Source of the DNA: an uncultured SAR86 cluster bacterium
GTDB taxonomy: Bacteria; Pseudomonadota; Gammaproteobacteria; Magnimaribacterales; AG-339-G14
NCBI GenBank assembly: GCA_902562135.1
Contig: CACESE010000001.1
Coordinates: forward strand, 30,181-94,180
Reading direction: 5' to 3'
Length of the DNA: 64,000 bases
Shown in pieces: positions 9,169-64,000 of this stretch (position 1 is its first letter; each line of letters begins with the position of its first letter). The notes below the pieces were generated by a model. That model made no database searches. It was not told the origin of the DNA and saw only the letters and a program-made list of their open reading frames with translations. The position numbers and the translations under genes are program-made.

Positions 9169-9179
9169 TAACTACAGTT

Positions 9180-10160: not shown

Positions 10161-10219
10161 ATTGTCTCCTAAATTTATTTATCGAATTTATAATAATATC
10201 AAAGAAAATGGTTAATTCT

Positions 10220-10258: not shown

Positions 10259-10266
10259 GATTTTGA

Positions 10267-11260: not shown

Positions 11261-11371
11261 ATATAAATTGTATTTAAGTTTTCAAAAAAAATTTTTTTAT
11301 AAAATTATTGATTCTTAAAATATATCAATAATGCTGTTCTAGTTTACTTTCTTAATACTTTTTTTTTCAAA

Positions 11372-12001
11372 TTAGTCATAAGATGCCCATAACACGTTAG
11401 CAACTGTTGATCTATATGGTTTCCATATCTTACTAATTTTTTTCATTTTTTCTTCTGAAGGTCTTTTTTTTAAATTTTTAATTCTCTGAACAGCTACTTG
11501 TAAGCCTAAATCTTTTACCGGCCAAATATCAGGTCTATCTAAAGAAGCTAGCATGTAGCATTCTGCCGTCCACTCACCTATCCCCTTGATTTTTATAAGA
11601 TTTTTTTTTAGTTCTTCGTCATCCATTTTATGCAATTCTCTAAAATTAAGTTGTTTATTTTTAATCGATTCTGCAAGGATTCTACAATATAAAATTTTTT
11701 GTCTGCTCAAACCAGTTTCCTTAAGGATTTGATCTGATAACTTTAAGAATTCTTCTGGTTTGAAACTTTTAAGATTTTTTCTAATTCTTAAAAAAATAGC
11801 TCTGGCGGATGCTACTGATAATTGTTGTTCGGTTATTAGTCTTACCAGTCCTTCATATCCTTTTGGACGTTTAAATTTTTTAAAGTTGCAGTTATCAAGA
11901 AATAAATTTTCTAAATCCTTATCCTTTTCAATAAGAAAAAAAATTTCTTTCTTTAAAGGGTGTTTTTCAAGAACTTTTAAACGGGAGTAATTTTTTTGCA
12001 T
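11372..12001 (-). CDS. HhH-GPD DNA glycosylase (AlkA-like DNA-3-methyladenine glycosylase II, short form)
   Basis: 209 aa. Helix-hairpin-helix IKGIGEWTAECYML followed by the catalytic-Asp region WPVKDLGLQ. Confidence 0.7.
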   Translation of the reverse strand: MQKNYSRLKVLEKHPLKKEIFFLIEKDKDLENLFLDNCNFKKFKRPKGYEGLVRLITEQQLSVASARAIFLRIRKNLKSFKPEEFLKLSDQILKETGLSRQKILYCRILAESIKNKQLNFRELHKMDDEELKKNLIKIKGIGEWTAECYMLASLDRPDIWPVKDLGLQVAVQRIKNLKKRPSEEKMKKISKIWKPYRSTVANVLWASYD

Positions 12002-13112
12002 CTTCTAGATATAGATTTATATGTCGTTCTTCTTTAATAACAAAATCGTCTATGGCTTCTCTAAATCTGTCATCAGCTATCCAGTGAGCTGAATATGTCT
12101 CGGTTGGTGAAAACCCTCGTTTGATTTTATGCTCTCCTTGAACGCCTGGATCAAATCTTTTTAATTTATTTTTTATACAATATTCAATTCCTTGATAGTA
12201 ACAACATTCAAAATGTAGACAATCAAATTCTTCTATACAACCCCAATATCTTCCATATAAATTTTTATCATCTTTAAAGAAAAGTGATCCGCCAACCATT
12301 TCGTTATTAGATTTTTTTTTAGCCAAAACTATGACTAAATTTTTAAAAAGGTTCGAAGGGAAATTCAAGAAAAATTGTTTCGTCAAGTATCCTGAAAATC
12401 CACTTCTTTTGATATTGGTTGATAAATAAAACTTATAGAACTTATCAAGCAGATCATAATTAATTTCTTCCTCAGAAAATGTTTCTATTATTAAATCTTG
12501 TTTTTTTATTTTTGATCTTTCTTTTTTTACATTCTTTCTATGCCTAGCTCTAAAAGAGTCTAAGTAATCTTCAAAACTTTTAAAATTTTGATTGAACCAT
12601 ACAAATTGAGCATTTTTTCTAATACTAAGATTTGAGTTTTCATAGAAATTTATTTCTCTCTCTTCAGGAAATAAAATATGCCATGAAGAAATATTGTTTT
12701 TTTTTGCAATACTTTTAACTCCTTCTTTCATAAGAGAAAATAATTCTTTTTGATTTTCACCATCCTTTAACAAAAGTCTTGGACCGGATGCTGGGGTATG
12801 AGGAATTGAGCTAACTAATTTAGGATAATAGTCTAGTCCATGTTGGTAAAATGCATTTGCCCAAGAATGATCAAAAACAAATTCTCCTTGAGAATGACTT
12901 TTCAAATATAGTGGCATTGCTGCAATAAGCTCGTCATCTCTAGAAATGCTTATGTGAAGTGGTATCCAACCAGTTTCAGCTCCAACACAGCTTGTATTTT
13001 CAAGTAATTTGAGAAAATCATGTTTTAGAAAGGGATAATCTACAACGTTTACTAATGAATCCCATTCTTTTTTAGAAATTTCTTCTATAGAGCTATTGAA
13101 GCTTATTTTCAT
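11967..13112 (-). CDS. DUF482/COG3146 GNAT-fold (FemAB-like) protein of unknown function
   Basis: 381 aa. The N-terminal EWDSLV...YPFLKHDFLKLLE and the C-terminal RFDPGVQGEHKIKRGF are family-typical as I recall them. 4-nt overlap with ubiA upstream and 35-nt overlap with the downstream glycosylase gene. Confidence 0.55.
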   Translation of the reverse strand: MKISFNSSIEEISKKEWDSLVNVVDYPFLKHDFLKLLENTSCVGAETGWIPLHISISRDDELIAAMPLYLKSHSQGEFVFDHSWANAFYQHGLDYYPKLVSSIPHTPASGPRLLLKDGENQKELFSLMKEGVKSIAKKNNISSWHILFPEEREINFYENSNLSIRKNAQFVWFNQNFKSFEDYLDSFRARHRKNVKKERSKIKKQDLIIETFSEEEINYDLLDKFYKFYLSTNIKRSGFSGYLTKQFFLNFPSNLFKNLVIVLAKKKSNNEMVGGSLFFKDDKNLYGRYWGCIEEFDCLHFECCYYQGIEYCIKNKLKRFDPGVQGEHKIKRGFSPTETYSAHWIADDRFREAIDDFVIKEERHINLYLEDAKKLLPFKSS

Positions 13113-13963
13113 GTTAAAAAAAGTGTTAAAAAAGAAATAAACATTAAAAATCCTAAAGCGTTATTTTTTTCAAAGAAACTAAAACTAGAACTAGGATCTT
13201 TAAAATTAGTTTTAAAAAAAATATATAAGAAGAAAATTATAGTAACAAAAAATAATATAAAAAATAAAACATCAGAATTTTTTAAAAATCCTATATAACC
13301 AAAAAGTAATATCCCTAATAAACCAAATAAAAATATAGAAGCCCTTTCGTATCCTTCAAAGAAAATTGCTGAACTACCAATCCCCAACAATTTATCATCA
13401 TCTCTATCTGATAAAGCATACGATGTATCGTAAGACATAATCCATAAGAAATTTGCTAGCATCAATACCAAACACTCAAATGTAATTGTGTTTATAGTTG
13501 CGGCAAAAGCAATTGGTATTCCACCAGAGAAAGTGAATCCTAAAATTATCTGCGGTAGTTTAAAAAATCTTTTTGAAAAAGGGTAAATAATAATTAGAAA
13601 AAGAATCGCGAAAGAGACGTAAAACGACAACTGGTTAAGTTGAAAAAGAAGAACTAAGGCTAAAACTATAAGAGAAAAAAATAAAACTATGGCTTCGGTC
13701 GAAGACACTTGTCCTGAGGCAATAGGCCTAAATTTGGTTCTACTTACTTTTTTATCTATATCTTTATCAATCAAATCATTTATCACACATCCAGCTGATC
13801 TCATGATTAGTGCGCCTAAACTAAATAAGATAAACAGTTTTAAACTTGGGTTATTGTTAGAAGCTACAATCAGTGCAATTAGGGTGGGCCATAGGAGTAG
13901 CAAAGTGCCTACTGGCTTATGCAATCTCATTAGGTAAAAATAGTTTTTCAATCTTTCGGTCAC
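13109..13963 (-). CDS. ubiA: 4-hydroxybenzoate polyprenyltransferase
   Basis: 284 aa polytopic membrane protein. First Asp-rich motif NDLIDKDIDKKVSRTKFRPIASG and second motif YALSDRDDD. Confidence 0.9.
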   Translation of the reverse strand: MTERLKNYFYLMRLHKPVGTLLLLWPTLIALIVASNNNPSLKLFILFSLGALIMRSAGCVINDLIDKDIDKKVSRTKFRPIASGQVSSTEAIVLFFSLIVLALVLLFQLNQLSFYVSFAILFLIIIYPFSKRFFKLPQIILGFTFSGGIPIAFAATINTITFECLVLMLANFLWIMSYDTSYALSDRDDDKLLGIGSSAIFFEGYERASIFLFGLLGILLFGYIGFLKNSDVLFFILFFVTIIFFLYIFFKTNFKDPSSSFSFFEKNNALGFLMFISFLTLFLT

Positions 13964-14007
13964 ACTGATATATTATTCAAAAATTAATAACCTTACAGAA
14001 ATTTATT

Positions 14008-14202
14008 ATGGAAGATTTTAGAAAGTGGGAATGTATAGTTTGTGGTTGGATTTATGATGAAGCAGAAGGTCTGCCAGAAGAAGGTATTCCACCTGGAACA
14101 AAATGGGAAGACGTTCCTCATGATTGGGTATGTCCAGACTGTGGCGTGGGAAAGGAGGATTTTGACATGATTCCATTAGAAGGCTCTGGTAAGAGTTATT
14201 AA
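14008..14202 (+). CDS. rubA: Rubredoxin
   Basis: 64 aa with two CxxCG knuckles in canonical rubredoxin context (WECIVCGWIYDE and WVCPDCGVGKEDF). Confidence 0.93.
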   Translation: MEDFRKWECIVCGWIYDEAEGLPEEGIPPGTKWEDVPHDWVCPDCGVGKEDFDMIPLEGSGKSY

Positions 14203-15449
14203 TGTCCTATACAACTAAAATCCTTTTCTCTATGTTTGCAGGAATCCTATTGGGTTCCTTGGTAAATCTATTTTTTTTGGAAAATGAACTAGTATCATTT
14301 TTTATTCAATTTTTTAGTATCTTAGGAGCAATTTTTATCGCCTCATTGAAACTAATGGTTGTCCCATTAGTATTTTTTTCTTTAGTAACCGGAGTTGCTC
14401 AAATTACGAATTCATCTAAATTAGGATCTATAAGCCTCAAAGCAATTCTTTTATACTTAGTTACGACTTCGATTGCTATTTCTTTAGCCCTTTTTTTCTC
14501 AAATTTTTTTAATATTGGAAGTGGCGTAGGTCTAATCACAAATGTGGAATTTACAGCGCCTAGTCCACCATCTCTTAAAGAAGTTTTAATAAATATTTTT
14601 CCAACAAATCCAATTCAAGCCATGGCAAACGGGGAAATGTTACAAATAATTGTTTTTTCTTTGATAGTTGGTTTAGGAGTTAGATCACTGTCATCTAATG
14701 AACATGTTGTTAATTTTTTTATATCTGGAAACAGCCTCATGTTAAAAATTGTTGAAATAATAATTCTATTTGCTCCCATCGGTATTTTTTGTTTGTTAGT
14801 AGATATTTTTTCTAAAATCGGATTTTCAATAATTTATGACCTTGCAGGATATTTCTTTCTGTTAGTTTGTGTTTTATTTATTCATGGAATTTTTGTTTAC
14901 AGTTTTTTTCTTTATTTCTTTACTGGGCTTCATCCATTTATTTTTTACTCAAAACTAAAAGAGGTTATATTTTTTGCATTTAGCACCTCTTCAAGTAGTG
15001 CAACTATGCCTCTTACTTTAAAAACCGCAAAAGATAAGCTTGGAGTAGATCAATCAGTTGCTTCCTTCACTATTCCTCTAGGAGCGACAATAAATATGGA
15101 TGGAACAGCAATTATGCAAGGAGTTGCTACTGTGTTTATTTCTCAGGCATATGGAATTGATTTGAGCGTATCAGACTTCTTAATGGTTATACTGACAGCA
15201 ACTTTAGCATCCATTGGCACAGCGGGAGTGCCTGGTGTTGGATTAATAATGCTCGCAATGGTTCTTCAGCAAGTAGGACTTCCAGTCGAAGGTATCGCCC
15301 TAATTATAGGAGTAGATAGATTGTTAGATATGTTAAGAACTTCAGTAAATGTTTGTGGCGATTCTATGATCGCATGTCTTATTTCATCGAGTGAAAATAA
15401 CTTGAGAAAGGAAATTTTTTATGATCAAAAAATGAAATCAAAATTCTGA
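14202..15449 (+). CDS. Dicarboxylate/amino acid:cation symporter (DAACS family; GltP/SstT-like)
   Basis: 415 aa polytopic protein. Family motifs SSSATMPLT, ATINMDGTA and DRLLDMLRTSVNVCGD. TAATG junction with the rubredoxin gene. Confidence 0.85.
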   Translation: MSYTTKILFSMFAGILLGSLVNLFFLENELVSFFIQFFSILGAIFIASLKLMVVPLVFFSLVTGVAQITNSSKLGSISLKAILLYLVTTSIAISLALFFSNFFNIGSGVGLITNVEFTAPSPPSLKEVLINIFPTNPIQAMANGEMLQIIVFSLIVGLGVRSLSSNEHVVNFFISGNSLMLKIVEIIILFAPIGIFCLLVDIFSKIGFSIIYDLAGYFFLLVCVLFIHGIFVYSFFLYFFTGLHPFIFYSKLKEVIFFAFSTSSSSATMPLTLKTAKDKLGVDQSVASFTIPLGATINMDGTAIMQGVATVFISQAYGIDLSVSDFLMVILTATLASIGTAGVPGVGLIMLAMVLQQVGLPVEGIALIIGVDRLLDMLRTSVNVCGDSMIACLISSSENNLRKEIFYDQKMKSKF

Positions 15450-15499
15450 AAATTATCTTTATTTCTGATAAATTAATCTGATCTTTTTAGGAGAAAATC

Positions 15500-17482
15500 A
15501 TGGAGTTAAATCTTATCTATCCGCCTTTATTGGGCATCTTTGGTTTAGTCGTAGCATTACTTTTATTTGTGCTGGTAATGAGATACGACGGCGGTTCGGA
15601 TGAGGTTAAAAAAATTGGAGATCAGATACATTTAGGAGCTATGGTATTCATGAGACGGGAGTATACCTATTTAGCTTTATTCGTTTCAGTGTTAATAGTC
15701 TTATCTTACATATTTCTTGGATTCAATACCGCTTTAGCAGTCACTGCTGGAGCCTTATCTTCATCATTGGCCGGTTGGTTAGGAATGTTTGCCGCGACAA
15801 AAGCTAATGTAAGAACTGCCACAGCAGCTAGTAAGGAGGGAGCTCAATCAGCGCTCTCAGTAGCCTTTTACGGCGGCTCAATCATGGGGTTATGTGTAGC
15901 TTCCTTAGGTCTTGTTGGTTTGGGCGGATTATATTTTTATTTCGGGGGTGATCCTGAAACTGCAAGAGCAATTGAAGGTTTTGGTATGGGCGCTTCTTGC
16001 GTAGCTTTATTTTCAAGAGTTGGAGGAGGAATTTATACTAAGAGCGCAGACGTGGGAGCTGATTTAGTAGGTAAAGTAGAGGCAGGAATTCCTGAAGACG
16101 ATCCTAGGAATCCCGGGGTTATCGCAGACAATGTAGGAGATAATGTTGGAGATGTTGCTGGAATGGGTTCTGATATATTTGAATCTTATTGCGGATCTAT
16201 GATCGCTTCTATTGCTATTGCAGCAACCTTAGATGATAGCGGTATGATGGCTCTTCCTTTGGCTTTGGCTTCTTTAGGATTACTGGCTTCAATTTTGGGA
16301 ATTGTTATTGTGAGAATCTTTTCGAAGGCTGATCCAGGTACGGCTTTAAGGACTGGTACTATGGGTTCTGCAATATTATTTGTTATTGCAGCTTTCTTTT
16401 TAATTGAATTGATTTTGAATGAAAATGTTTTTTACACTTGGTTGGCTGTACTTGCTGGGGCAGTAGGAGGAGTATTAATTGGCTTGATAACAGAGTATTA
16501 CACTGGGTCAACTCCTGTAGAAAAAATTGCTAAGTCAGGAGAGACAGGTCCTGCTACCGTAATGATCACAGGTTTATCAGTTGGAATGCAATCAGTTGTT
16601 TTACCAATTCTAATTCTTGCAACAATTATTTTAGTTTCCACAAGTTTAGTAGGGCTCTACGGAGTAGGAATTGCTGCTGTTGGTATGTTAGCAACTGTTG
16701 GAATCACCATGGCTATAGATGCTTATGGTCCAGTTGCGGATAACGCCGGAGGAATTGCTGAAATGTCGGGAATGGGAAGTGAAACAAGAGAAATTACCGA
16801 TTCATTGGATGAGCTTGGCAATTCTACTGCTGCTATTGGAAAAGGATTTGCTATAGGAGCAGCTGCATTAGCTGCGTTAGCAATTATTGCAGCCTTTGTT
16901 GAAACAGTTTCTCACAATAATGAACAATTTGAATTGGTACTATCTGATCCTCAAGTTTTAGTGGGCATGTTTATAGGAATATCAATTCCCTTTTTAATAT
17001 CCTCAATTACTATGACAGCGGTGGGGGATGCTGCTTTCGATATGATAAATGAAATAAGAAGACAATTTAGAGAAATCCCAGGTCTTCTTGAAGGCAATGC
17101 CGAGCCCGATACTGCAAAGTGTGTTGATATTGCAACTTCAGCAGCATTAAAAAGAATGTTACTTCCTGGGGTTATTGCAGTAAGCGCTCCTGTGATTGTA
17201 GGTTTTGGTCTTAGTCCCGAATCTTTGGGAGGAATGCTTGGAGGGGGGTTGATTGGATGTGTTTCTATGGCCCTTATGATGGCTAATTCTGGTGGCGCAT
17301 GGGATAACGCTAAAAAATTTATAGAAAAAGGAAATCTTGGTGGAAAAGGAACAGATACTCATTCTGCTGCAGTTGTAGGTGATACAGTTGGTGATCCATT
17401 CAAAGATACTTCTGGTCCTTCAATGAACATTTTGATAAATGTGATGGCAATTGTGAGTTTAGTTATTTCACCATTACTTTAA
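15500..17482 (+). CDS. hppA: Membrane-integral ion-translocating pyrophosphatase (K+-dependent subfamily signature)
   Basis: 660 aa. Contains [55 protein letters not shown] and [14 protein letters not shown]. Ala at codon 16829-16831 in GNSTAA marks the K+-dependent class. Confidence 0.95.
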
Positions 17483-52638: not shown

Positions 52639-54438
52639 ATGTATGACGAAGATATTGAAAATAATGGGCTGCGTGAATTAATAGAAAAGGGCAGAGAACA
52701 AGGTTTTATTACATTTGCAGACATAAACGATTTTCTTCCGGAAGACGTATCTGATCCAGATCAATTAGATGAAGTCATTCAGACCATCAATGATTTAGGC
52801 CTCCAAGTTCTCGAAAATGCTCCCGAAGAAGGTTCCGATGCTATGGAAGCTATAAATCAGCCAGTGGCTCCAGAGCCTACGGAAAACGAAATGGGTGCAA
52901 TAGAGTCGGAAGTTGGAAGAACAACTGATCCAGTAAGGCTTTACATGAGAGAAATGGGCTCAGTGGATCTTCTCACTAGAGAAGGGGAAATCGTAATCGC
53001 TAAAAGTATTGAAGAAGGCGCAAGAGACTTACTAAACTCCTGCGCAAAGTTTCCTGGAATCATCGAGGAATTTCTTCTCGAATACGCATTAATTAAGAAA
53101 GAAGATAAAAGAATATCTGACATCATTGTTGGTTTTATGGATGAGGAGGAAGAAGTTGTTCCTGGTCCTCAAGCTGGAGAAAATGTTGAAATGGATGAGA
53201 GCTCCGACGAAGAAGATGACGGCGCAGGCATTGACATGCAAGAACTTGAAAAACGTTTAGCTTCTTTGAAAAGACAATTTAATAAAACTGAAAAGGTCAT
53301 TGATCAAAAAGGCAGGAATAGTGACGAGGCGGTTAAAGAATTAGAAAAGTTAGGAAATATATTTAAGTTTTTGAAGTTATCTCCAAAAAGATTTGAAGTT
53401 ATTTCTTTAAGACCAAGACTTTTGGCAAAAAGAATACGAGGAATAGAGAAAGAAATTTATGATCTATGCGTTCAACAAAGCAAAATGCCAAGGAAAGAAT
53501 TTTTGGACATATTTAGAGATAATGAAACAAATTTAAAATTTCTAGATCCCATATTTAAAAGTAAGAAAAATTATATTGGAGAGTTATCAGATTATAAAGA
53601 TGATATTAAAACGCTTCAAAACAGAATAAAGGGCATCGAAGAAGAAATTGGTTTATCAGTTTCTGAGATTAAATCGCTTGCCTCTCAGATGACTAAGGGC
53701 GAAACAAAAATTAGAAGAGCCAAGAAAGACATGATTGAAGCAAACTTAAGACTTGTCATTTCAATAGCCAAAAAATATACCAATAGGGGATTGCAATTTT
53801 TGGATTTAATTCAAGAAGGTAACATTGGTTTAATGAAGGCGGTAGATAAATTTGAGTATAGAAGAGGTTATAAATTCTCAACTTATGCGACCTGGTGGAT
53901 CAGACAAGCAATTACAAGATCTATAGCAGATCAAGCGAGAACGATTAGAATTCCAGTACATATGATTGAAACTATTAATAAATTGAACAGAATTTCAAGG
54001 CAAATGCTTCAAGAAAACGGCAGAGAGCCTACTCCTGAAGAGTTAAGTGAAAAGATGGATATGCCTGAAGATAAAATTAGAAAAGTTTTAAAGATTGCTA
54101 AAGAGCCAATCTCTACAGAAACTCCAATAGGAGATGAAGACGATACTACATTGGGTGATTTCATCGAAGATCCATTGCTAGATTCACCGATAGATTCAGC
54201 GACTGAATCAAATTTAATTGAAGCTACCGGCGGAGTTTTAGGGAGTTTGACAGCAAGAGAAGCTAAGGTTTTAAGAATGCGTTTTGGAATTGGTATGAAC
54301 ACAGACCATACTTTAGAAGAGGTAGGCAAACAATTTGATGTAACTAGAGAAAGAATTAGGCAAATTGAAGCTAAAGCGCTAAGAAAGTTAAGACATCCAT
54401 CTAGATCTGGTCATTTGAAAGGCTTCCTAGACGAATAA
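52639..54438 (+). CDS. rpoD: RNA polymerase primary sigma factor (sigma-70)
   Basis: 599 aa. An acidic region 1/non-conserved insert, region 2 ([37 protein letters not shown]), and region 4 ([30 protein letters not shown]). Confidence 0.97.
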
Positions 54439-54442
54439 TTTT

Positions 54443-54519
<77 letters not shown>

Positions 54520-54532: not shown

Positions 54533-54898
54533 CTAATCTTTTTGCTCATCAAATGGGCATTTATAAACATCAATATAAACTCCCGCTGCATCCAGCTGAT
54601 AACCATCTTTATACTCTTGTGATGAATATATATCTCTTATGACAATAGCATTGCCTCCTGCTATGTGAACTTGGTCTTTCAAAACACGTAATGCGTTTGA
54701 AGTTGCAAAAGAGTTATTCCAACCGCTCTCTCTTTTTTCAGTATCATAAAGATAAACACAATTCAGACTCTTGACTTGAGAACGATCAATCGTCATTACA
54801 TGATGATTATCAGAGTATATTGATGGATCAAGAGATTCACACGCGACAATTAAGGAAAAAAAAAGAATGAGTGTTAGTCTGTTCATCAAATATATCAC
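54533..54898 (-). CDS. Small lipoprotein, DUF4156-like
   Basis: 121 aa. Lipobox LIVAC in the signal peptide; the start is the ATG at 54898 or at 54886. The central block (NALRVLKDQVHIAGGNAIVIRDI) resembles the DUF4156 pattern. Confidence 0.55.
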   Translation of the reverse strand: MIYLMNRLTLILFFSLIVACESLDPSIYSDNHHVMTIDRSQVKSLNCVYLYDTEKRESGWNNSFATSNALRVLKDQVHIAGGNAIVIRDIYSSQEYKDGYQLDAAGVYIDVYKCPFDEQKD

Positions 54899-54983: not shown

Positions 54984-55066
54984 TTAAAAAAAACTTATTT
55001 ATCCACAAAAGTACCTTTTTTACTCCTGTACCTTTATAACCATAAGTTATTTATATATATAAAAAT

Positions 55067-55085
55067 GATAATCATTCTCATTATC
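55067..55085 (+). promoter_or_regulatory. Fur box 1 upstream of the TonB-dependent receptor
   Basis: GATAATCATTCTCATTATC matches the 19-bp consensus GATAATGATAATCATTATC at 16/19. It lies 61-79 nt upstream of the receptor ATG. Confidence 0.8.
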
Positions 55086-55094
55086 ATTTGTATT

Positions 55095-55113
55095 AATAAT
55101 GAGAATCATTATC
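55095..55113 (+). promoter_or_regulatory. Fur box 2 upstream of the TonB-dependent receptor
   Basis: AATAATGAGAATCATTATC matches the Fur consensus at 17/19. It lies 33-51 nt upstream of the receptor ATG. Confidence 0.85.
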
Positions 55114-55145
55114 ATTTATAGACTATATTTATAGTGGAATAATTT

Positions 55146-57305
55146 ATGAAAAAAATATTTTTGTCTAGCTTGCTAGTAGCAAGTGGAATTTTAGTTTCAG
55201 GTGCCTTGATTGCGCAGGAAGAAGAACTAGTTGTGAAAGGTAACGTTCTTTACTCTGATCAAGTCAACGCACTTAAAACTCCAGTGCCAGTAATAAACGT
55301 ACCAGTATCTGTATCTATTATCACTGACGATGAAATTGCTAGACAAGGTTTTGATCAACTAGGGGATGTAGTTAGATATACACCCGGTGTGAGTACTTCT
55401 CAAGGAGAGGGCCACAGAGATGCAATCGTTTTCCGCGGTAACAGATCGACAGCTGACTTTTTCCAAGATGGTGTTAGAGACGACGTTCAATACTATCGTT
55501 CTCTTTATAATGTAGAGCAAGTAGAGATCTTAAGAGGTCCTAATGCTTTATTATTTGGAAGAGGTGGAACTGGTGGAGTAATCAACAGAGTTTCTAAAAA
55601 AGGTGTCCTGGGAGAAACTTTTGGCTCATTTTCAATCGGCTCAAACACTTTCGGCGCTTATGATTTTGTTGCGGATTACAACATTTCGATTAATGAAGAT
55701 AGGTCTTTGAGAATTATGGCTCATCGTGATTATCTTAACAATCACAGGTCTTACTATGACGGAGATCGAGCAGGATTTAATCCAACAGTGAAAATTAAAA
55801 TGAGTGATAACACTATGTTAGATGTTTCTTATGAATATGCTGATCACGAAAGATTTATTGACCGAGGCATACCTACAGGTTCTAATGGAGAGCCAGTAGA
55901 GGCGTTGGCTGATATCGTTTTTGGACACCCAGATCTAAATACCCAAACCTTAACTGCTGATATTTTAAGAGCTACCATTACTAGAGACATCTCAGAGACT
56001 TCAAAAGCTATTTTTTCTATCACTAATAATGAATTTGAAAAAATGTATCAAAACCTTTACGTCGCTGGTTATAGTGCAACACTTGAAGAAGTTGCTTTAG
56101 ATGGATATTTAGATCCTACTACAAGAGATAATTTAATTATTTCAGCTAATTTTGTAAACGAATTTGAAATAGGCTCTGCCACGCATACCATTTTATTCGG
56201 TATTGAAGTGGTTGATACCGACAACAAAAACTTCCGATACAACACTAACTTCACAAATGCTGGAGCTTTGCCTTTAGCTAATGACGGAACTGGTATATAC
56301 GCGGCAGGTAGTTCGCAAGCAGGTAAAAGTGATAGGGAAACTTTTTCGATTGCTGACATGAGAGCTGGTATCTTTAATAGAGATGAGGCTGGTGCAGCTG
56401 TTACGTTAGATTTCACTGAGAAACTAAACAACATTACTACTACTGAATTTGAAGTTACTTCTTTCTTCCTTCAAGACCAAATAGATGTATCTGACAACTT
56501 GAAGCTCCTTATTGGCGCAAGATTCGACGACTACGAAATCACTGTAGTTAATCTTAAGCCTGGTTCTGAAGCTACTGTTACCAAAGGAGAGAATTTAACA
56601 TCACCCAGAGCAGGTATTATCTTCAAACCTCAGGACAATGTTTCAATTTATGCAAGTTACAGTAACACCTTTGCACCTGTAGCTGGAGAGCAATATAAAG
56701 CTATGTCAAACAGTCTTGGACCTATAGGCTCATTGAATGAGGTCTTAGATGCCAGTGAAACCGAAAATGCTGAGATAGGTCTGAAATGGGCTATTTCTGA
56801 TGAGTTATTTTTAACTGCTGCATACTTTGATGCAGAAAGAACTGCTATGACTGCCGTTACAGTTAATAATGTTGCTGAACAACAAGAAGTTGTTAATCAA
56901 AACGTAGATGGTATAGAAATTGAACTAGCAGGAAGAATTTCAGATCAACTTGAACTGACGATGAGTTATGCTGATTTTGAAGGTGATAATGTTGCTCAGA
57001 ATAAAGAAATTCCAGATTATCAATTTTCTGCATTCGCCAATTATCAGGTTAATGATAAATTCGGTATTGGATTTGGCCTAACTTCTCAAGGCGATCAGCA
57101 AATTGGAAGTGGGGCTACTCCTTATTTACCGAGTTTCACTAGAGTTGATGTAGCGGCATATTATCAAATTGCCGACGATTTAATGTTGCAAATGAATATA
57201 GAAAACCTAACAGATGAAACGTATTTCCCTCACTCACACTCAACACACCAAGCGTCTGTTGGAGAAGAGGTTAATGCTAATTTCTCAATTAGGAGGACTT
57301 TCTAA
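55146..57305 (+). CDS. TonB-dependent outer-membrane receptor (siderophore-type, Fiu/CirA-like)
   Basis: 719 aa. Signal peptide, a TonB-box-like EELVVKG, a plug domain (VEILRGPNALLFGRGGTGGVINRVSK), a long beta-barrel, and a terminal aromatic residue (SIRRTF). No FRAP/NPNL heme-receptor motifs seen. Confidence 0.9.
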   Translation: MKKIFLSSLLVASGILVSGALIAQEEELVVKGNVLYSDQVNALKTPVPVINVPVSVSIITDDEIARQGFDQLGDVVRYTPGVSTSQGEGHRDAIVFRGNRSTADFFQDGVRDDVQYYRSLYNVEQVEILRGPNALLFGRGGTGGVINRVSKKGVLGETFGSFSIGSNTFGAYDFVADYNISINEDRSLRIMAHRDYLNNHRSYYDGDRAGFNPTVKIKMSDNTMLDVSYEYADHERFIDRGIPTGSNGEPVEALADIVFGHPDLNTQTLTADILRATITRDISETSKAIFSITNNEFEKMYQNLYVAGYSATLEEVALDGYLDPTTRDNLIISANFVNEFEIGSATHTILFGIEVVDTDNKNFRYNTNFTNAGALPLANDGTGIYAAGSSQAGKSDRETFSIADMRAGIFNRDEAGAAVTLDFTEKLNNITTTEFEVTSFFLQDQIDVSDNLKLLIGARFDDYEITVVNLKPGSEATVTKGENLTSPRAGIIFKPQDNVSIYASYSNTFAPVAGEQYKAMSNSLGPIGSLNEVLDASETENAEIGLKWAISDELFLTAAYFDAERTAMTAVTVNNVAEQQEVVNQNVDGIEIELAGRISDQLELTMSYADFEGDNVAQNKEIPDYQFSAFANYQVNDKFGIGFGLTSQGDQQIGSGATPYLPSFTRVDVAAYYQIADDLMLQMNIENLTDETYFPHSHSTHQASVGEEVNANFSIRRTF

Positions 57306-57394
57306 GAGGATTTTGGTTTGTGTACCCTCAATTAAATAATAGAACTTACATTTATTATTTTTATAAACTCACCATAAACTACACAAATCAAATT

Positions 57395-57434
57395 AGAACC
57401 CAGATTGGCAGAGATCCTGGGTTCTTCCTTTTTT
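57395..57434 (+). terminator. Rho-independent terminator, probably bidirectional (receptor gene and convergent ALAS gene)
   Basis: agaacccag (57395-57403) pairs with ctgggttct (57417-57425) around a 13-nt loop and is followed by tcctttttt. On the minus strand the same hairpin is followed by aatttgattt. Confidence 0.8.
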
Positions 57435-57440
57435 AAATAA

Positions 57441-58694
57441 TTAATAAATTTTAGAAACTTTCTTAATCTCTTTACGAGTAACTTTTTCAGCTCTCTTTAA
57501 ACCTAAATCATTCCAAACCTTATCAAGAGATTCGACAAAGCTCTTAACATCGACAGACGAGTGCTTGGGAGTAATGGTCACTCTGAACCTTTCATCGCCT
57601 TTTGGAACAGTTGGGTAAAATATTGGCTGAATATAAATTCCGTGTTCATTTATCAGAGTGTTAGCTGCTTTTTTACAAAGCTCCGGCTCATAAAGATGGA
57701 TGGGGATTATGTGACTGTCGTTCTTTAAAAAAGGTATGTTGTAATCCGTTAAACCTTCTCTGATTAAATCTGAATTAACTTTTATATTTTCTCTTAAAAT
57801 GTCAGCTCTTTTTGCAATTTGAATAGCTTGTATAGATGCCGCCGCAATACTTGGGTTTGCTGAAGAAGTAAATATAAAACCTGGAGCAAAACTTCTTATA
57901 AAATCAATAACGTCCTTGTTTGCTGCAACGTAACCACCCATTTGCCCAAAAGCTTTTGAAAGGGTTCCATTAATGATATCAATCTCATCAGAAACATTTA
58001 ATTCTGCCGCAATTCCTCTTCCTTCTGGGCCATATAAACCAACTGAATGGACCTCATCCAAATATGTTAAAGCGTTATATTTTTTTGCAAGCTGAACAAT
58101 TTTCTTTATAGGTGAACGAAGACCTTCCATCGAATAGAGGGATTCGAAAACTATTAACTTTGGCGTATTTGCATTGGATGTTTTGAGCAGTTCTTCAAGG
58201 TGTTCAACATCATTGTGCTTGAAGACATGAGTTTTTACATTCGCATTTTTTATTCCTTGAATCATGGAAGCATGATTAAGTTCGTCAGAATAAACTTCGC
58301 AACCTTCAAGCTTCTTACATAATGTCCATAGAGTTGATTGGTTTGCCGTGTAAGCAGAGGGAAATAATAAGCTGGCTTCTTTATTGTGCAATTCAGCAAG
58401 ATCATTCTCAAGATCGGCATGATAAGAGGATGTACCTGAAATATTTCTGGTTCCTCCAGATCCCGTTCCTAATTCCTTGATTACCTTTATTGATTCTAAG
58501 ATCACAACAGGATGTTGACTTAGATTCAAATAGTCATTGCTGCACCAAACTTCAACAGCCCTCTCTTTGCCTTCAAAACGTTCGGTGGCTTTAGGGAAGT
58601 TAACATGGTTCCTATTGATCTCTCTAAATTTTCTATAAAGACCTTGGGATTTAAGTGAGGTTAATTCGTCAGCAAAGTATTTTTTATAATTCAT
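57441..58694 (-). CDS. hemA: 5-aminolevulinate synthase (C4/Shemin pathway; alpha-oxoamine synthase family)
   Basis: 417 aa. ALAS-specific blocks [52 protein letters not shown] and [10 protein letters not shown] (PLP lysine K247, codon 57956-57954). Collinear with my recollection of Rhodobacter and animal ALAS, and distinct from the BioF/KBL patterns. Confidence 0.9.
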
Positions 58695-58791
58695 TAATAA
58701 TAGAGTTACTTACAAAATGAAGTATAAATGAAAGTACTATTTAATAGATATAAATTTTATAATTACATTCTCTATATATTTTAAAGTTATA

Positions 58792-60285
58792 TTGAAAACA
58801 TTAAGAATCATTTCAAGAAAAAGTCTGTTGGCGCAAGTTCAGGCACAAATTGTGGCTGATAAGATTAAAAACAAATTTGAAGACATTCAGATAGAGTTTG
58901 TTACAAAAGAAACATCTGGAGATATTGATTTAACTACACCTTTACATCAAATGCCCGATGCAGGTGTTTTTACAAATGACATAAGACAAGAACTTTTAAG
59001 TAATAATGCAGATTTGGCAGTTCATTCTTGGAAAGACTTGCCCGTAGAACTCTTGGAAGGAACAGAAATTATAACCACCTTAAAAAGAGCTGATTCACGA
59101 GACCTTCTTATTTTTAAAAAAAAATCTTTGGGAAAGCAAACTATAAAACTTTTAACTTCTTCTCCTAGGAGAAAAGAAAACTTATCTAATTTTTTACCCA
59201 ACGCACTTCCTTGGATTCCTTCAGATATAAAATTTGTCGATGTTAGGGGGAATATTCAAACGAGGCTTTCAAAACTTTTTGAGTCTGAAAAAGATGGTTT
59301 AGTCATCGCATTTGCTGCAATGAAAAGACTTTTGGCCTCTTCTAAATTTTTTAAAGAAGAATCTAATCTTTTAGAGCTATTAAAAGAATCAAAATGGATG
59401 TTACTACCTTTATCAGAAAATCCAGCAGCACCAGCTCAAGGCGCGCTAGCATTAGAAATATCGTCAAAAAATCATGACTTAAAAAATCTTTTAAAGAATA
59501 TAGGAGATGAAGAAACTTTTAATTTAGTAATTAAAGAAAGGGAAATTTTAAAAAAATACGGTGGTGGCTGCCACCAAAAAATTGGAGTGAGCATAATAAA
59601 CTCAACGAAAGGCCAAATTTTACATATAAAAGGCGAAACAGAAGAAGGTGAGAAAATTTCTAAATCATCATTTGAACCACTAGAATCATATAAAAATAAA
59701 CTGAAAGAAGTTAAAAATTATTTCCCTTCTAGTAAAGAGTCGTCACAAATTTTTAATAGAGTGTCTATTTCAAAAGCAGAACAAAAAGTTTCTGGAATTA
59801 AAAATTCTGGAATTTATGTTAGTAGAGGAAATGTTATTGAGAATATTAATTCAATTTCTAATACAAATTTGGTATGGACTAGTGGAGTTGAGACTTGGTT
59901 AAAACTAGCATCAAAGGGAATTTGGGTTAATGGAACTTCTGATAGTTTGGGAGAAAACGAAAGTCCGCCTTTAGGGCTTTATAAAGACACTAAGTGGTAT
60001 AAATTATCGCATTTAGATGCTCATGAAGAAAAACTGGAATTGATATCTACTTATAAATTAGTGTCAAATGAATTGCCGAAAGATATTGAAAAAAATAGCC
60101 ATTATTATTGGATGAGCTCAAGTTCTTTCAAATTTATTTTTGAAAAATTTCCTTCAATAGAAAACGCTAATCATTCCTGTGGGTTGGGTAAAACGTTTGA
60201 TGAGATCAACCAAATTATTCCAGGAAAAGTTTATCCTTATCAGAATTATAAAGATTGGCTAGATAAAATTAAAAGAGCAAAGTAA
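58792..60285 (+). CDS. hemC: Porphobilinogen deaminase (HemC) with a ~190-aa C-terminal extension; the extension is a candidate minimal uroporphyrinogen-III synthase (HemD-like) module
   Basis: 497 aa with a TTG start. HemC residues are present: RIISRKSLLA (Arg9), HSWKDLP, SSPRR, RGNIQTRL, and the cofactor Cys in GGGCHQKIG (C260). Residues ~300-497 have no HemC counterpart. They carry HEM4-like strings: IYVSRGN, LVWTSGVETWLKL, YYWMSSSSFKFIFEKF and CGLGKTFDEI. Confidence 0.85.
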   Translation: MKTLRIISRKSLLAQVQAQIVADKIKNKFEDIQIEFVTKETSGDIDLTTPLHQMPDAGVFTNDIRQELLSNNADLAVHSWKDLPVELLEGTEIITTLKRADSRDLLIFKKKSLGKQTIKLLTSSPRRKENLSNFLPNALPWIPSDIKFVDVRGNIQTRLSKLFESEKDGLVIAFAAMKRLLASSKFFKEESNLLELLKESKWMLLPLSENPAAPAQGALALEISSKNHDLKNLLKNIGDEETFNLVIKEREILKKYGGGCHQKIGVSIINSTKGQILHIKGETEEGEKISKSSFEPLESYKNKLKEVKNYFPSSKESSQIFNRVSISKAEQKVSGIKNSGIYVSRGNVIENINSISNTNLVWTSGVETWLKLASKGIWVNGTSDSLGENESPPLGLYKDTKWYKLSHLDAHEEKLELISTYKLVSNELPKDIEKNSHYYWMSSSSFKFIFEKFPSIENANHSCGLGKTFDEINQIIPGKVYPYQNYKDWLDKIKRAK

Positions 60286-60306
60286 CATTGCGTTCCAATT
60301 TAAGTT

Positions 60307-61302
60307 ATGAAGAGTTTATTAAGAAAATTTCCCAGTACTAGACTGAGAAGAAATAGGTCAAAAAATAGCTTGAGATCGATTTTGGCCGAATCAAAAATCA
60401 CCGTTGATGATTTGATTCAGCCTATTTTTATCAAAGAAAATTTATCTGGCTATGAGCCAATCCAATCTATGCCAGGTATCAACAGATTAGGAGCAAATGT
60501 TTTAGAAGCAGAATTAAGAAATATTATCGATACTGGTATTAAAGCAGTTGCTTTATTTCCAGTGATCGAAGAGGAAAAAAAGGATTCAGCAGGAACAGAA
60601 GCACTTAATCAAGATAATTTTTTAAATGTTGAAATATCAAAAATTAAAGACCTATTTCCTGAATTAATAATCATTGCTGACGTCGCTTTAGACCCCTATA
60701 CAGATCATGGCCACGATGGAGTTTTAAATAAAGTTGGAGATGTTGATAATGATCTAAGTCTTGATGTTCTAAAGAATCAGGCTTTATCTCTTGCGAAAGC
60801 AGGAGCCGATGTAATTGCTCCCTCAGATATGATGGATGGACGAATTAAAGTTATCAGAGATGCTTTAGAGAAAAATAACTTCAAAGACACGGTAATTCTT
60901 TCTTATGCAGCAAAATATAGTTCAAAATTTTATGGACCATTTAAAGACGCAGTAGAATCTGCAAAATTCTTTGGAAATAAAAATAAAGACACTTATCAAA
61001 TGTCCCCTGCAAATAAAAATGAAGCTCTACAAGAAGTTGCTATGGATATAAATGAAGGCGCAGATATAGTAATGGTCAAACCAGGCATGCCATACCTCGA
61101 TATTGTTTCTTCGGTGAAAGAAACCTTTAAAGTTCCTACTTTTGTTTATCAGGTCAGTGGGGAATATTCTATGCTTAAAGGAGCTATTGACAACGGTTGG
61201 CTTTCAGAAGAAGTGATGAAAGAATCTATTTTATCTTTTAAAAGAGCTGGAGCTGATTGTATTTTGACCTATGCTGCACTAGAAGTAGCGAAAGAATTAT
61301 AA
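60307..61302 (+). CDS. hemB: Porphobilinogen synthase (ALA dehydratase), Asp-rich Zn-independent type
   Basis: 331 aa. Metal-site segment DVALDPYTDHGHDG (60679-60720) has Asp where Zn enzymes have Cys. Schiff-base lysine regions (YAAKYSS, MVKPGMPYLD) are present. Confidence 0.94.
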   Translation: MKSLLRKFPSTRLRRNRSKNSLRSILAESKITVDDLIQPIFIKENLSGYEPIQSMPGINRLGANVLEAELRNIIDTGIKAVALFPVIEEEKKDSAGTEALNQDNFLNVEISKIKDLFPELIIIADVALDPYTDHGHDGVLNKVGDVDNDLSLDVLKNQALSLAKAGADVIAPSDMMDGRIKVIRDALEKNNFKDTVILSYAAKYSSKFYGPFKDAVESAKFFGNKNKDTYQMSPANKNEALQEVAMDINEGADIVMVKPGMPYLDIVSSVKETFKVPTFVYQVSGEYSMLKGAIDNGWLSEEVMKESILSFKRAGADCILTYAALEVAKEL

Positions 61303-61305
61303 AAA

Positions 61306-62328
61306 ATGCCCAATCAAAAGTTTCTCAATGCGCTAGCAAACGTTCCTCAATCTACCCCTCCGATTTGGTTTATGAGGCAAGCTGGAAGATACCACAGTCA
61401 TTATCAAAATTTAAAAACCAAAAATTCTTTTGAGGAACTTTGTAAATCACCAACTTTGGCTGCAGAAACAGCTATGGGACCCATAAATTCTTTTGATTTT
61501 GATGTTGCTATCCTCTTTAGTGATATTTTGTTTCCTTTAGAAAGTTTAGGAATGGATTTAACATATTCTCCTGGGCCGAAATTTGGAAAATTATTGACCG
61601 AGGTAAATTTTAAAGAAGTATTTAAAAATAATTTTGATATTAACTCTTTGTCTTTCCAGGGAGAAGCAATAGAAAGAACTCTTGAAGTTTTACCAAAGGA
61701 TAAATCATTTATCGGGTTTGTCGGTGGCCCTTTTACTTTACTTGTTTACTCGATGGGACTTAATAAAAGTGAGAAAACTTTAAATTTAACAGATTTCCAA
61801 ATTGAAATTCTTAAGGATTTTCTTTTTCCGGTAATTTCTGAAAATATAACCATGCAACTTGAAGCTGGAGCAGAAATTGTGATGATTTTCGATTCTTCTG
61901 CTCATTTTTTACAACAAAAAAGCTTTTTAAAATACTTAGACATGATGCATGAGCAAATTTTTTCAAAATTTGAAAAAAGGATTGGATATTATGCTAGAGA
62001 AGGGATTGATTACGATTCGATAATTTCAGTTAACAAATTAAAACAGACATCTCTCGCTGGGCTAGGTATCGACTCAAATGAATCTTTGTCTAAATATTTT
62101 AAGCTATCAAGAGATTATTTTATTCAGGGAAATTTTGACGAAAAATTAATGCTTTTATCAAATACTTCTATGAAATTAGAATTAGAAAAATTTATCAAGT
62201 CTATAGAGAATTTTAGTGAAAAAGAGAGAGCAGGGTGGATCTGTGGTTTAGGCCATGGAATTTTAAAAGAAACTCCAGAAGAAAATGTGCAAACTTTTGT
62301 AAGAATGATAAGGGAGTCTTTTAAATGA
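61306..62328 (+). CDS. hemE: Uroporphyrinogen decarboxylase
   Basis: 340 aa. N-terminal signature PPIWFMRQAGRY, and GFVGGPFTL. Confidence 0.92.
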   Translation: MPNQKFLNALANVPQSTPPIWFMRQAGRYHSHYQNLKTKNSFEELCKSPTLAAETAMGPINSFDFDVAILFSDILFPLESLGMDLTYSPGPKFGKLLTEVNFKEVFKNNFDINSLSFQGEAIERTLEVLPKDKSFIGFVGGPFTLLVYSMGLNKSEKTLNLTDFQIEILKDFLFPVISENITMQLEAGAEIVMIFDSSAHFLQQKSFLKYLDMMHEQIFSKFEKRIGYYAREGIDYDSIISVNKLKQTSLAGLGIDSNESLSKYFKLSRDYFIQGNFDEKLMLLSNTSMKLELEKFIKSIENFSEKERAGWICGLGHGILKETPEENVQTFVRMIRESFK

Positions 62329-63332
62329 GTTTTCTCGGCGAAAAAAATTTTTCTCACAAAGATCAAGAAAATATAGGGATACTTATATGTAATTTAGGTA
62401 CCCCAGACAGTTATTCTGTCAAAGACGTCAGGGCTTTTTTAAGAGAGTTTTTATCGGATAGTAGAGTAATAGAAATACCTAAAATTGTTTGGTGGTTTAT
62501 TCTAAATTTATTTATTTTAACCTTCAGGCCTTTTAGCTCATCTAAGTTGTACAAATCTGTTTGGACTGATGAAGGGTCTCCTCTAATGGTTTATTCAAAA
62601 AAATTAATTGATAGATTAGATGAAAAGCTTCCCGAAAAATACGAAGTTGCACTGGGTATGAGGTATGGTAACCCAAGCATTAAAACTGCATTAAAAAAAC
62701 TCAAAGATAGAAACTGTAGAAAAATCTTAGTTTTACCATTATTCCCTCAGTACTCTGCTACAACTTCCGGAAGTATTTTTGACAAAGTCTCAGAAGAGAT
62801 TAGAAATTGGAGATGGGTGCCTAGTTTAATTTTTATCAATTCTTATCATGATGATGAAAATTTTATTTCCGCTATATCAAACTCGTTAAGACCAAAACTC
62901 GAGTCTGAAAAACCTGACAAGGTAGTTTTTACTTATCATGGAATACCTAAAAATTATTTTGACCAGGGCGATCCCTATCACTGCCTTTGCCAAAAAACAA
63001 CAAGATTAGTTTGTGAGAATTTAAAACTTGAAGAAAAAAAAAGTATCACAACATTTCAATCAAGATTGGGAAATGCTGAATGGTTAAAACCATATACCAG
63101 CGAGGTTATGAAAAGTTTACCTAAAGAAGGCTGTAAAAATATTATGGTTATCGCTCCAGGTTTTAGTGTCGATTGCCTAGAAACAATAGAAGAAATAGAT
63201 GAAGAAAATAAGGAATATTTTTTAAATTCTGGAGGAGCAAAATTCACTTATGTTGAGTGTTTAAACGACACTGATCATCACGTAAATTTTTTAAAGGAAT
63301 TTATAGAAAAGAAAATTTCTGTATGGAAATAA
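62325..63332 (+). CDS. hemH: Ferrochelatase
   Basis: 335 aa. ILICNLGTPDS, LPLFPQYSATT, FTYHGIP and DCLETIEEI motifs. ATGA overlap with hemE. Confidence 0.93.
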   Translation: MSFLGEKNFSHKDQENIGILICNLGTPDSYSVKDVRAFLREFLSDSRVIEIPKIVWWFILNLFILTFRPFSSSKLYKSVWTDEGSPLMVYSKKLIDRLDEKLPEKYEVALGMRYGNPSIKTALKKLKDRNCRKILVLPLFPQYSATTSGSIFDKVSEEIRNWRWVPSLIFINSYHDDENFISAISNSLRPKLESEKPDKVVFTYHGIPKNYFDQGDPYHCLCQKTTRLVCENLKLEEKKSITTFQSRLGNAEWLKPYTSEVMKSLPKEGCKNIMVIAPGFSVDCLETIEEIDEENKEYFLNSGGAKFTYVECLNDTDHHVNFLKEFIEKKISVWK

Positions 63333-64000
63333 AAGACTTAGAAGATAAGAAAAAAAAGGCTAGTGAATGGTTTCGTACTCTTCGTGATAAATTTTGTAAA
63401 ACTTTTGAAAGTCTGGATTCAAAAAAATTTTCTAGAAAGCTTTGGGAGCATAAAGGAGAAGGTGGTGGCGAGATAAGCATCATGAGAGGAGATGTTTTTG
63501 AAAAAGTTGGAGTTAATATCTCAACAGTCTCCGGAGAATTTTCTGAAGATTATCGAACTCAAGTAAAAGGGACCGAAGGTTCGCCAAATTATTGGGCCTC
63601 AGGGATTAGTTTAGTAGCACATATGCAATCTCCAAAAATTCCTGCTTTTCATTTCAATACTCGTTTTCTTGTAACACAAGATTCTTGGTTTGGCGGAGGT
63701 ACTGATATGACTCCTACACTTGAAGATAGAAAGGATAAAAGATATTTTCATGACAGATTAGAGGCTGCATGTAATAAGCACGATGCAAACTATTACAAAG
63801 AATTTAAAAAAAATTGTGATGAATATTTTTATTTGCCGCATCGAGAGGAACCAAGAGGAGTGGGAGGAATTTTTTTTGATCACTTAAACTCTGGAAAATG
63901 GGAAGAAGATTTTAATTTTGTAAAGGAAGTGGGTTTAGAAACTCTAAATATAATTACAGAAATTGTGACTGCTAAAAAAGATCTTTCTTGGACAAGAGAA
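63323..64000 (+). CDS. hemF: Oxygen-dependent coproporphyrinogen-III oxidase; the C-terminus is cut off by the right window edge, 226 codons present
   Basis: Not in the ORF track because it is open at the window end. My translation from the ATG at 63323 reads MEIKDLEDKKKKASEWFRTLRDKFCKTFESLD...GGGEISIMRGDVFEKVGVNISTVSGEF...SGISLVAHMQSPKIPAFHFNTRF...WFGGGTDMTP...REEPRGVGGIFFD, which are HemF hallmarks. It overlaps hemH by 10 nt. Confidence 0.9.
   Translation, partial: MEIKDLEDKKKKASEWFRTLRDKFCKTFESLDSKKFSRKLWEHKGEGGGEISIMRGDVFEKVGVNISTVSGEFSEDYRTQVKGTEGSPNYWASGISLVAHMQSPKIPAFHFNTRFLVTQDSWFGGGTDMTPTLEDRKDKRYFHDRLEAACNKHDANYYKEFKKNCDEYFYLPHREEPRGVGGIFFDHLNSGKWEEDFNFVKEVGLETLNIITEIVTAKKDLSWTRE

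Follow-up and report, generated by a model that had tools for sequence, protein, structure and literature searches.

In the classical hem operons, hemCDXY of Escherichia coli and hemAXCDBL with hemEHY of Bacillus subtilis, the early steps of haem synthesis are partly clustered and hemC lies beside hemD, as in the locus described here; these operons cover two to six steps, use the C5 route and keep hemC and hemD as separate genes, and we know of none that carries all eight steps in one place. The hem cluster of Leptospira reportedly begins with GluTR and HemL, that is, with the C5 route. According to reviews and recent papers, 5-aminolevulinate synthase (ALAS), the enzyme of the Shemin (C4) route, is confined to Alphaproteobacteria and to eukaryotes other than plants (PMC7242693, PMC11480375). 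Here we analyse a haem locus headed by a predicted ALAS gene at one end of a 64,000-nt stretch of DNA (hereafter the window) from a SAR86 cluster bacterium (assembly GCA_902562135.1, contig CACESE010000001.1, positions 30,181 to 94,180 of the forward strand). SAR86 has been placed as a deep-branching order of Gammaproteobacteria, Magnimaribacterales, whose genomes measure 1.05-1.66 Mb (Ramfelt et al. 2024, PMC11582366).

Set against the alphaproteobacterial and mitochondrial enzymes (HemA/HemT; 2BWN, 7X98, human ALAS2), the SAR86 ALAS belongs to the same family, has the same length and keeps the same catalytic and substrate-selecting residues, whereas its host is gammaproteobacterial, its sequences form a separate clade and its gene is joined to the rest of the pathway. 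The Leptospira cluster has a homologous fused domain resembling uroporphyrinogen-III synthase (UroS), and in both cases the hem genes are gathered around the fusion; the SAR86 locus differs in having ALAS in place of GluTR and HemL, and in adding hemF and hemJ. AlmA and the cyclising ALAS enzymes are members of the same alpha-oxoamine synthase subfamily that also occur outside Alphaproteobacteria, but they carry Ser82/Gly86 and lie in antibiotic gene clusters of organisms that keep the C5 route (PMC9356726).

We consider it likely (probability about 0.8) that the locus constitutes a working, self-contained, protoporphyrin-dependent haem gene set of a SAR86 gammaproteobacterium. The host is placed in SAR86 (order Magnimaribacterales, Gammaproteobacteria), and the window, with a GC content of 32.6%, carries gammaproteobacterial synteny (apaH-rsmA-pdxA-surA-lptD, purD-purH, gmk, spoT, recG, dnaG), so that a preliminary description of this DNA, made from the letters alone, was right to speak of a gammaproteobacterial gene order. 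Positions 55007-64000 are collinear with the SAR86 single-cell genome AG-349-F19 (locus L001) at 94.2% nucleotide identity. The features of the haem locus are as follows.

57441-58694, minus strand: ALAS, predicted 5-aminolevulinate synthase (Shemin/C4 route), 417 aa; TIGR01821
58695-58791: divergent intergenic region between ALAS and hemCD, 97 bp, AT-rich
58792-59679, plus strand: hemC part of the fusion, hydroxymethylbilane synthase (HmbS), three domains; TIGR00212
59680-60285, plus strand: hemD part of the fusion, predicted divergent UroS domain, residues about 297-497
60307-61302, plus strand: hemB, porphobilinogen synthase of the Asp-rich (zinc-independent) type; NF006762 460.6 bits, cut-off 297
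61306-62328, plus strand: hemE, divergent uroporphyrinogen decarboxylase (UroD); Pfam URO-D over its full length, 235.6 bits (cut-off 23.9)
62325-63332, plus strand: hemH, protoporphyrin ferrochelatase; TIGR00109 309 bits (cut-off 124.6), Pfam Ferrochelatase 367.9 bits
63323-64000, plus strand: hemF, O2-dependent coproporphyrinogen oxidase; first 226 codons, the gene being cut by the window end

Identity of the ALAS gene

On the ALAS model TIGR01821 the product of 57441-58694 scores 545.8 bits against a cut-off of 338.55, whereas it stays below the cut-offs of the sister families, reaching 327 bits on BioF (cut-off 426) and 322 on KBL (460) and likewise falling short on the SPT model. Its closest solved structures are 7x98 (403 bits), human ALAS2 (386) and R. 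capsulatus 2bwn (378), and the top chain from outside the ALAS family, a bifunctional BioF/KBL enzyme, follows at 227 bits. The protein keeps Arg21, the Asn of WCSNDYL, the His of NHASM, the DEVH motif, the pyridoxal phosphate (PLP) lysine Lys247 and the Arg of ERFR. Alignment to 7x98, human ALAS2 and some 30 alphaproteobacterial proteins shows the PLP lysine, the Asp and His of DEVH, the NHASM histidine and the equivalents of Arg21 and Arg374 to be conserved.

A true ALAS is distinguished by Thr82/83 together with Ser or Ala at 86/87, as opposed to the Ser82/Gly86 pair of AlmA and the cyclising ALAS enzymes (PMC9356726). The Thr82/Ser86 motif, GGTRNISG, is present in the window and in all seven related loci discussed below (L001-L004, L058, L062 and L063). 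Neighbour-joining (NJ) trees of 384-399 columns, with 200-300 bootstraps, separate the ALAS-like clade from KBL- and BioF-like outgroups with 100% support, recover the SAR86 ALAS as monophyletic with 100% support, and unite them with the alphaproteobacterial and human enzymes, apart from the AlmA type, in 71-74% of replicates. The tree and the hidden Markov model cut-offs together rule out a BioF, KBL or SPT identity, and the product is predicted to be a true ALAS, not one of these enzymes or AlmA, that would form 5-aminolevulinate (ALA) from glycine and succinyl-CoA. The ALAS call of the preliminary description is borne out by the score above the TIGR01821 cut-off, the intact catalytic residues and the fully supported ALAS clade, and the phylogeny that it had proposed as a check, now built, groups the gene with ALAS and not with BioF, KBL or SPT.

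The gene also appears to be the most constrained of the cluster. Synonymous divergence (dS) is saturated in every comparison, so that only nonsynonymous divergence (dN) is informative; against L004, the dN of ALAS is the lowest among the cluster genes, at 0.056 compared with 0.108-0.183, and ALAS is under strong purifying selection. The gene call itself is already known and not new, since the JGI automatic annotation names the product 5-aminolevulinate synthase.

The hem operon and the HemC-HemD fusion

The ALAS gene, on the minus strand, is divergent from the plus-strand genes hemC(D)-hemB-hemE-hemH-hemF, and the successive junctions of the latter are gaps of 21 and 3 nt followed by overlaps of 4 and 10 nt; the open reading frame (ORF) map thereby agrees with the layout given in the preliminary description, of a divergent ALAS and hem genes joined by gaps of 3-21 nt or by overlaps. 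HemB has its closest solved structure in P. aeruginosa 1b4k (370 bits), and its metal-site motif, DVALDPYTDHGHDG, is that of the Asp-rich, zinc-independent type. The 226-codon portion of HemF scores 266.4 bits on NF003727 against a cut-off of 297, while the complete hemF of L001 encodes 273 aa and reaches 308 bits on Pfam Coprogen_oxidas.

In relatives, the remaining step is encoded just beyond hemF. In L001, L002 and L004 an ORF of 139-140 aa begins about 1 nt after hemF, and in L001 (4130-4549, minus strand) it is HemJ, with a match to PF03653 at 1e-48 and 145.9 bits on TIGR00701 (cut-off 138). The same slot in L003 (4006-4530, minus strand), the SAR86 genome AG-337-E11, holds HemG, at 200 bits on NF008316 (cut-off 142). 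HemG, the protoporphyrinogen dehydrogenase that depends on menaquinone, thus replaces HemJ in AG-337-E11, two non-homologous enzymes serving the same step at the same position; the hemG gene is followed there by a hydrophobic ORF of 136 aa (L003:3593-4003, minus strand) that has no NCBIfam match. This interchange at the terminal slot speaks for selection on the entire pathway as a unit. Because hemJ or hemG directly follows hemF in the relatives, the locus is predicted to encode the complete eight-step route that leads from glycine and succinyl-CoA to protohaem. The check for hemJ, hemY or hemG beyond hemF that the preliminary description had suggested has therefore given hemJ (L001) or hemG (L003) as the next gene in relatives; its view of a consolidated pathway stands, and its count of six or seven of the eight steps rises to eight with the HemD fusion and hemJ or hemG.

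The fusion ORF (58792-60285, plus strand) encodes 497 aa. Its HemC part scores 204 bits on TIGR00212 (cut-off 164) and has the dipyrromethane-cofactor cysteine, Cys260, within GGGCHQKIG. The AlphaFold model of the full-length protein is confident (pLDDT 94.7, pTM 0.93), and in Foldseek the HemC part, of about 300 residues, matches 1pda, 1ah5 and human HmbS at E values of about 1e-23 and TM 0.8. The full-length model retrieved only HmbS and periplasmic-binding folds, and the C-terminal domain was for this reason modelled separately (pLDDT 92.1). Searched against the PDB with Foldseek, this domain has UroS as each of its top 11 matches, all with a probability of 1.00, while the next match falls to 0.54; the UroS structures include 3mw8 (7.8e-6), 3d8t, human 1jr2, 3re1 and 3p9z, and come from Shewanella, Thermus, human, Pseudomonas and Helicobacter. 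The TM-scores to UroS structures are low, at 0.41-0.59, which we take to reflect the hinged, two-domain nature of UroS.

The sequence profile of the domain found no solved structure. Profile–profile alignment (hhalign) with the bifunctional HemC/D of Leptospira santarosai gave a probability of 100 and an E value of 4.6e-56; according to the citing paper, the Leptospira HemC/D fusion has dual HmbS and UroS activity (Guegan et al. 2003, cited in PMC8698207). We consequently interpret the extension as a predicted divergent, fused uroporphyrinogen-III synthase (HemD), on the strength of its modelled fold and its homology. The preliminary description had seen a hemC with an extension, which holds, and the extension can now be assigned to HemD by the UroS fold and the homology to Leptospira HemC/D.

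Motifs conserved across the HemD domain family, of which the Leptospira santarosai protein is a member, are WTSG, GxWVNGxxDxLGE, YWMSxSxF and HxCGxGxT. A profile search of 1.84 billion representative proteins returned 717 clusters at E<=0.001, more than 500 of them at E<1e-10, and the majority of the 717 are proteins of about 500 aa composed of HemC and the fused domain. Pfam HEM4 matches 0 of 65 tested members of the family, and as a family that HEM4 misses, the fused HemD (>500 clusters at E<1e-10) could help to find hemD elsewhere. In one further locus, L064:8001-17614, the fusion gene (537 aa) is solitary, with no other hem genes nearby, and adjoins short unannotated ORFs that include a phage Mu Gam-like protein and an NB-ARC/AAA ATPase.

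Taken as a pathway, the locus would work as follows. ALAS would convert glycine and succinyl-CoA to ALA in one PLP-dependent step, and the divergent operon would supply HemB (porphobilinogen synthase), HemC-HemD (HmbS-UroS), HemE (UroD), HemH and HemF, with a protoporphyrinogen oxidase expected beyond the window end, as in the relatives, where it is HemJ or, in one, HemG. It is plausible that the fused HemC-HemD hands the unstable hydroxymethylbilane directly to the cyclase, and that both divergent transcription units are co-regulated from the shared 97-bp spacer. In these genomes of 1-1.7 Mb, ALAS would be the chief supplier of ALA and probably the sole one.

Distribution, origin and rival explanations

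A scan of GTDB species genomes with the ALAS protein brought up four named SAR86 genomes (L001-L004). The cluster layout is identical in all four, and their ALAS is 98% identical to that of the window (AG-349-F19) or 84-92% identical (the three further genomes). Three deeper, low-GC marine loci also have ALAS divergent from a hem operon, with ALAS 50-65% and HemC-D 37-45% identical to the window:

L058: GC 31%; HemC-D about 45% and ALAS 64.5% identical to the window; hemH not in the cluster
L062: GC 33%; HemC-D about 38% and ALAS 54% identical; gene order as in the window
L063: GC 26%; HemC-D about 37% and ALAS 50% identical; hemB relocated beside ALAS

The L063 lineage, with its GC of 26%, might be a candidate for the fast-evolving CHAB-I-7 family of SAR86.

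None of about 30 alphaproteobacterial ALAS loci, searched over 10 kb per side where the contig allowed, has the cluster. The only one with hem genes adjoining is L035 (4906-8876), from a Lake Baikal Rhodospirillaceae MAG (metagenome-assembled genome), where ALAS, a weak HemC-like match and HemB stand in a row. A different arrangement is found in L060, a marine MAG contig (GCA_002321895.1, GC 41.5%), where the HemC-D fusion lies in a C5-type cluster (9118-16511) of GluTR, HemC-D, HemL, a histidine kinase, a response regulator, hemE and hemH; its GluTR, of only 279 aa, gives a weak score. The layout is presumably similar to that of the hem cluster of Leptospira, which has HemKR regulators, and from the GluTR and HemL of L060 it follows that the HemC-D operon family exists in C5-headed and ALAS-headed forms. 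As a separate observation, the ALAS of the 'Anaerolineae' MAG L029 hardly differs in the tree from that of the alphaproteobacterial MAG L020 from the same study series (IP29b, PL24a), which points either to a binning error or to a very recent transfer.

With respect to origin, the SAR86 ALAS is 44-50% identical to all sampled alphaproteobacterial and mitochondrial ALAS. Its sister is a single AT-rich alphaproteobacterial MAG in 42% of replicates and the whole of the alphaproteobacteria plus human in 25%. The preliminary description had favoured a co-occurring alphaproteobacterium as donor, a proposal that is not sustained, as the SAR86 clade is equidistant (44-50%) and its sister changes between replicates; these sequences single out no donor of the SAR86 ALAS. 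Phages offer no better source: in GenBank phages the related genes are all KBL- or BioF-like, with identities of up to 34%, and viral copies in IMG/VR, at 43-47%, are no closer than the alphaproteobacterial enzymes. The phage vAlaS (PMC11480375) is nevertheless comparable in being an aquatic case of ALAS moving outside Alphaproteobacteria. The base composition of the gene (GC 0.360, GC at third codon positions 0.287) falls in the range shown by the neighbouring genes (window 0.326; putative rpoD 0.360 and 0.273). Any transfer of ALAS would have to be old, because its composition matches the genome and the clade is common to lineages only 50-65% identical to one another, and on both counts the earlier remark that the gene is as AT-rich as its neighbours and its transfer not recent agrees with our data. 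Since the C5 route is the one reported for other Gammaproteobacteria (PMC11480375, PMC7242693), lateral transfer is the most economical account, and ALAS may have been acquired by the SAR86 stem lineage in an old transfer from an ALAS-bearing lineage.

Two other histories of the gene can be weighed against such an acquisition. ALAS might be ancestral in a deep gammaproteobacterial branch by vertical descent, and older than the Alphaproteobacteria: the SAR86 clade is not nested within any alphaproteobacterial subgroup in the NJ trees, a quarter of replicates place it as sister to all alphaproteobacterial and mitochondrial sequences, and the composition of the gene matches the rest of the genome. 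However, given C5 use in other Gammaproteobacteria (PMC11480375, PMC7242693), this history needs many losses, and the basal placement of a long, AT-rich branch is what a long-branch artefact would be expected to produce, so that we regard vertical descent as improbable. An artefact of assembly or binning, by which alphaproteobacterial (e.g., SAR11) DNA was joined to a SAR86 contig, might be entertained on the grounds that SAR86 and SAR11-like groups are both AT-rich and co-occur in samples. Against this, identical junctions recur in independent single-cell genomes, MAGs and long contigs (154 kb and 193 kb), some HemC-D copies of the L058 and L062 type lie on contigs of 1.38-1.49 Mb, ALAS is just 44-50% identical to any alphaproteobacterial ALAS, and the window is collinear with L001 across the ALAS junction; we judge the chance of a chimera to be negligible.

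Rival functions can be considered in the same way. A role for the gene in secondary metabolism, encoding either a serine-condensing enzyme of the AlmA type or a cyclising ALAS for C5N units, gains some standing from the occurrence of such homologues in Streptomyces, Bacillus and Gammaproteobacteria (PMC9356726) and from Bacillaceae homologues of the AlmA type that are about 47% identical. The latter (L021, Ectobacillus panaciterrae; L024, Bacillus nakamurai; L038, Rossellomorea sp.) carry GGSRNIGG or GGSRNIGD, and their ALAS-like genes probably make ALA analogues and not a haem precursor. The SAR86 proteins, in contrast, have the Thr/Ser pair and not Ser/Gly, group with true ALAS at 71-74% bootstrap, and are encoded by genes that always adjoin the haem operon, with no polyketide or amide-synthase genes nearby; owing to the Thr/Ser pair, the tree grouping and the structure matches, we reject this very improbable explanation. 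Less readily dismissed is the suggestion that ALAS is additional to an intact C5 route (GluTR, HemL) elsewhere in the genome, as a second source or one used only under certain conditions, such as a limited supply of tRNA-Glu or glutamate. The SAR86 DNA read here amounts to about 64 kb plus the flanks of relatives, and L060, with its GluTR and HemL, demonstrates that a C5-type version of the homologous cluster exists. On the other side, GluTR and HemL are absent in or beside the cluster in seven of seven SAR86-like lineages examined (at this locus only), ALAS is the most conserved cluster gene, and genomes of 1.05-1.66 Mb (PMC11582366) would make a redundant route less likely. A second, C5-based supply therefore seems to us unlikely, though the strongest of the rivals. 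That an old acquisition of ALAS at the base of SAR86 fully displaced the C5 route, the pathway being assembled as well into a single locus of eight steps in which HemC and HemD are fused and HemJ and HemG are interchangeable, we hold to be an even proposition.

Several observations weigh against our interpretation of the locus as a complete haem gene set of old, transferred origin. HemE scores 226.8 bits on the NCBIfam equivalog TIGR01464, under its cut-off of 303. The HemD domain has no match to Pfam HEM4 (PF02602) at E values up to 10, nor to any other Pfam family, and its assignment depends on a predicted fold and on homology to one characterised fusion. The hemJ gene lies outside the window, and we infer its presence here from a relative with a DNA identity of 94%. 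L058, L062 and L063 are treated as SAR86-like and are putative members of Magnimaribacterales, and the SAR86 ALAS branch is long and unstable in position in an NJ tree of 384-399 columns.

Within the library searched, no paper joins SAR86 with aminolevulinate or heme biosynthesis; the two principal SAR86 genome papers are silent on haem, and the supplements of Ramfelt 2024 (PMC11582366) that were searched contain none of the haem-pathway terms looked for. The biological point, an ALAS-headed haem locus in SAR86, appears not to have been made before. Every enzyme comes from a known family; the novelty lies in an ALAS start outside Alphaproteobacteria, in a fused HemD that had gone unrecognised, and in the consolidation of eight steps with a HemJ/HemG swap. 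ALAS is found here in a group that ranks among the most abundant bacteria of the surface ocean and whose haem synthesis would depend on glycine and on succinyl-CoA from the tricarboxylic acid cycle, not on glutamyl-tRNA. Annotation pipelines that seek GluTR, HemL and a Pfam-recognisable HemD would miscall SAR86 as haem-incomplete or haem-auxotrophic, and those relying on the TIGR01464 cut-off might leave the divergent HemE unnamed. In evolutionary terms the locus documents the gathering of a scattered pathway, including the exchange of HemJ for HemG at the same position. If the C5 route has indeed been displaced, SAR86 would be a major free-living order outside Alphaproteobacteria with a Shemin-based primary haem supply, SAR86 and SAR11, the two most abundant streamlined lineages of ocean heterotrophs, would both make haem from glycine and succinyl-CoA, and genome streamlining would seem to favour the one-gene route.

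Intergenic elements and neighbouring genes

The region on the far side of ALAS from the hem operon contains the following features.

52639-54438: putative rpoD, 599-aa ORF whose matching L001 ORF is sigma-70
54443-54516, plus strand: tRNA gene, 75.5 bits, directly after putative rpoD
55146-57305, plus strand: TonB-dependent siderophore-type outer-membrane receptor; Pfam Plug and TonB_dep_Rec_b-barrel, TIGR01783 231.7 bits (cut-off 223.5)
57396-57434: inverted repeat GAACCCAG...CTGGGTTC with a 13-nt loop, then a T-rich run, between the convergent receptor and ALAS

We read the 599-aa ORF as rpoD because its L001 counterpart is sigma-70. The tRNA gene is the only match that Rfam gave on the window, and the 121-aa ORF that comes after it (54533-54898, minus strand) has no Pfam match.

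Within the 97-bp spacer between ALAS and hemCD, a TATAAT box at 58758-58763 lies 29 nt upstream of the hemCD start codon, TTG, and the segment TTTATAATTA is invariant across the window and L001-L004, including L003, the most divergent of these loci. Consensus promoter and terminator scans of 57250-58900 gave nothing above chance; 58695-58791 is a putative promoter region. The inverted repeat at 57396-57434 is a possible bidirectional terminator; its loop exceeds the 8-nt limit of the terminator consensus scan, which for that reason passed it over.

The TonB-dependent receptor is a neighbour of the cluster and not a pathway enzyme. A receptor of the same type stands beside ALAS in L001 (11386-13563) and L058, and L004 has a 779-aa ORF in the receptor position; L062 and L063 have no such receptor beside ALAS. 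In L058 (1743-7442), the receptor is accompanied by an FbpABC-like iron ABC transporter, and the presence of a receptor or iron transporter next to ALAS may point to a coupling of iron uptake with haem synthesis.

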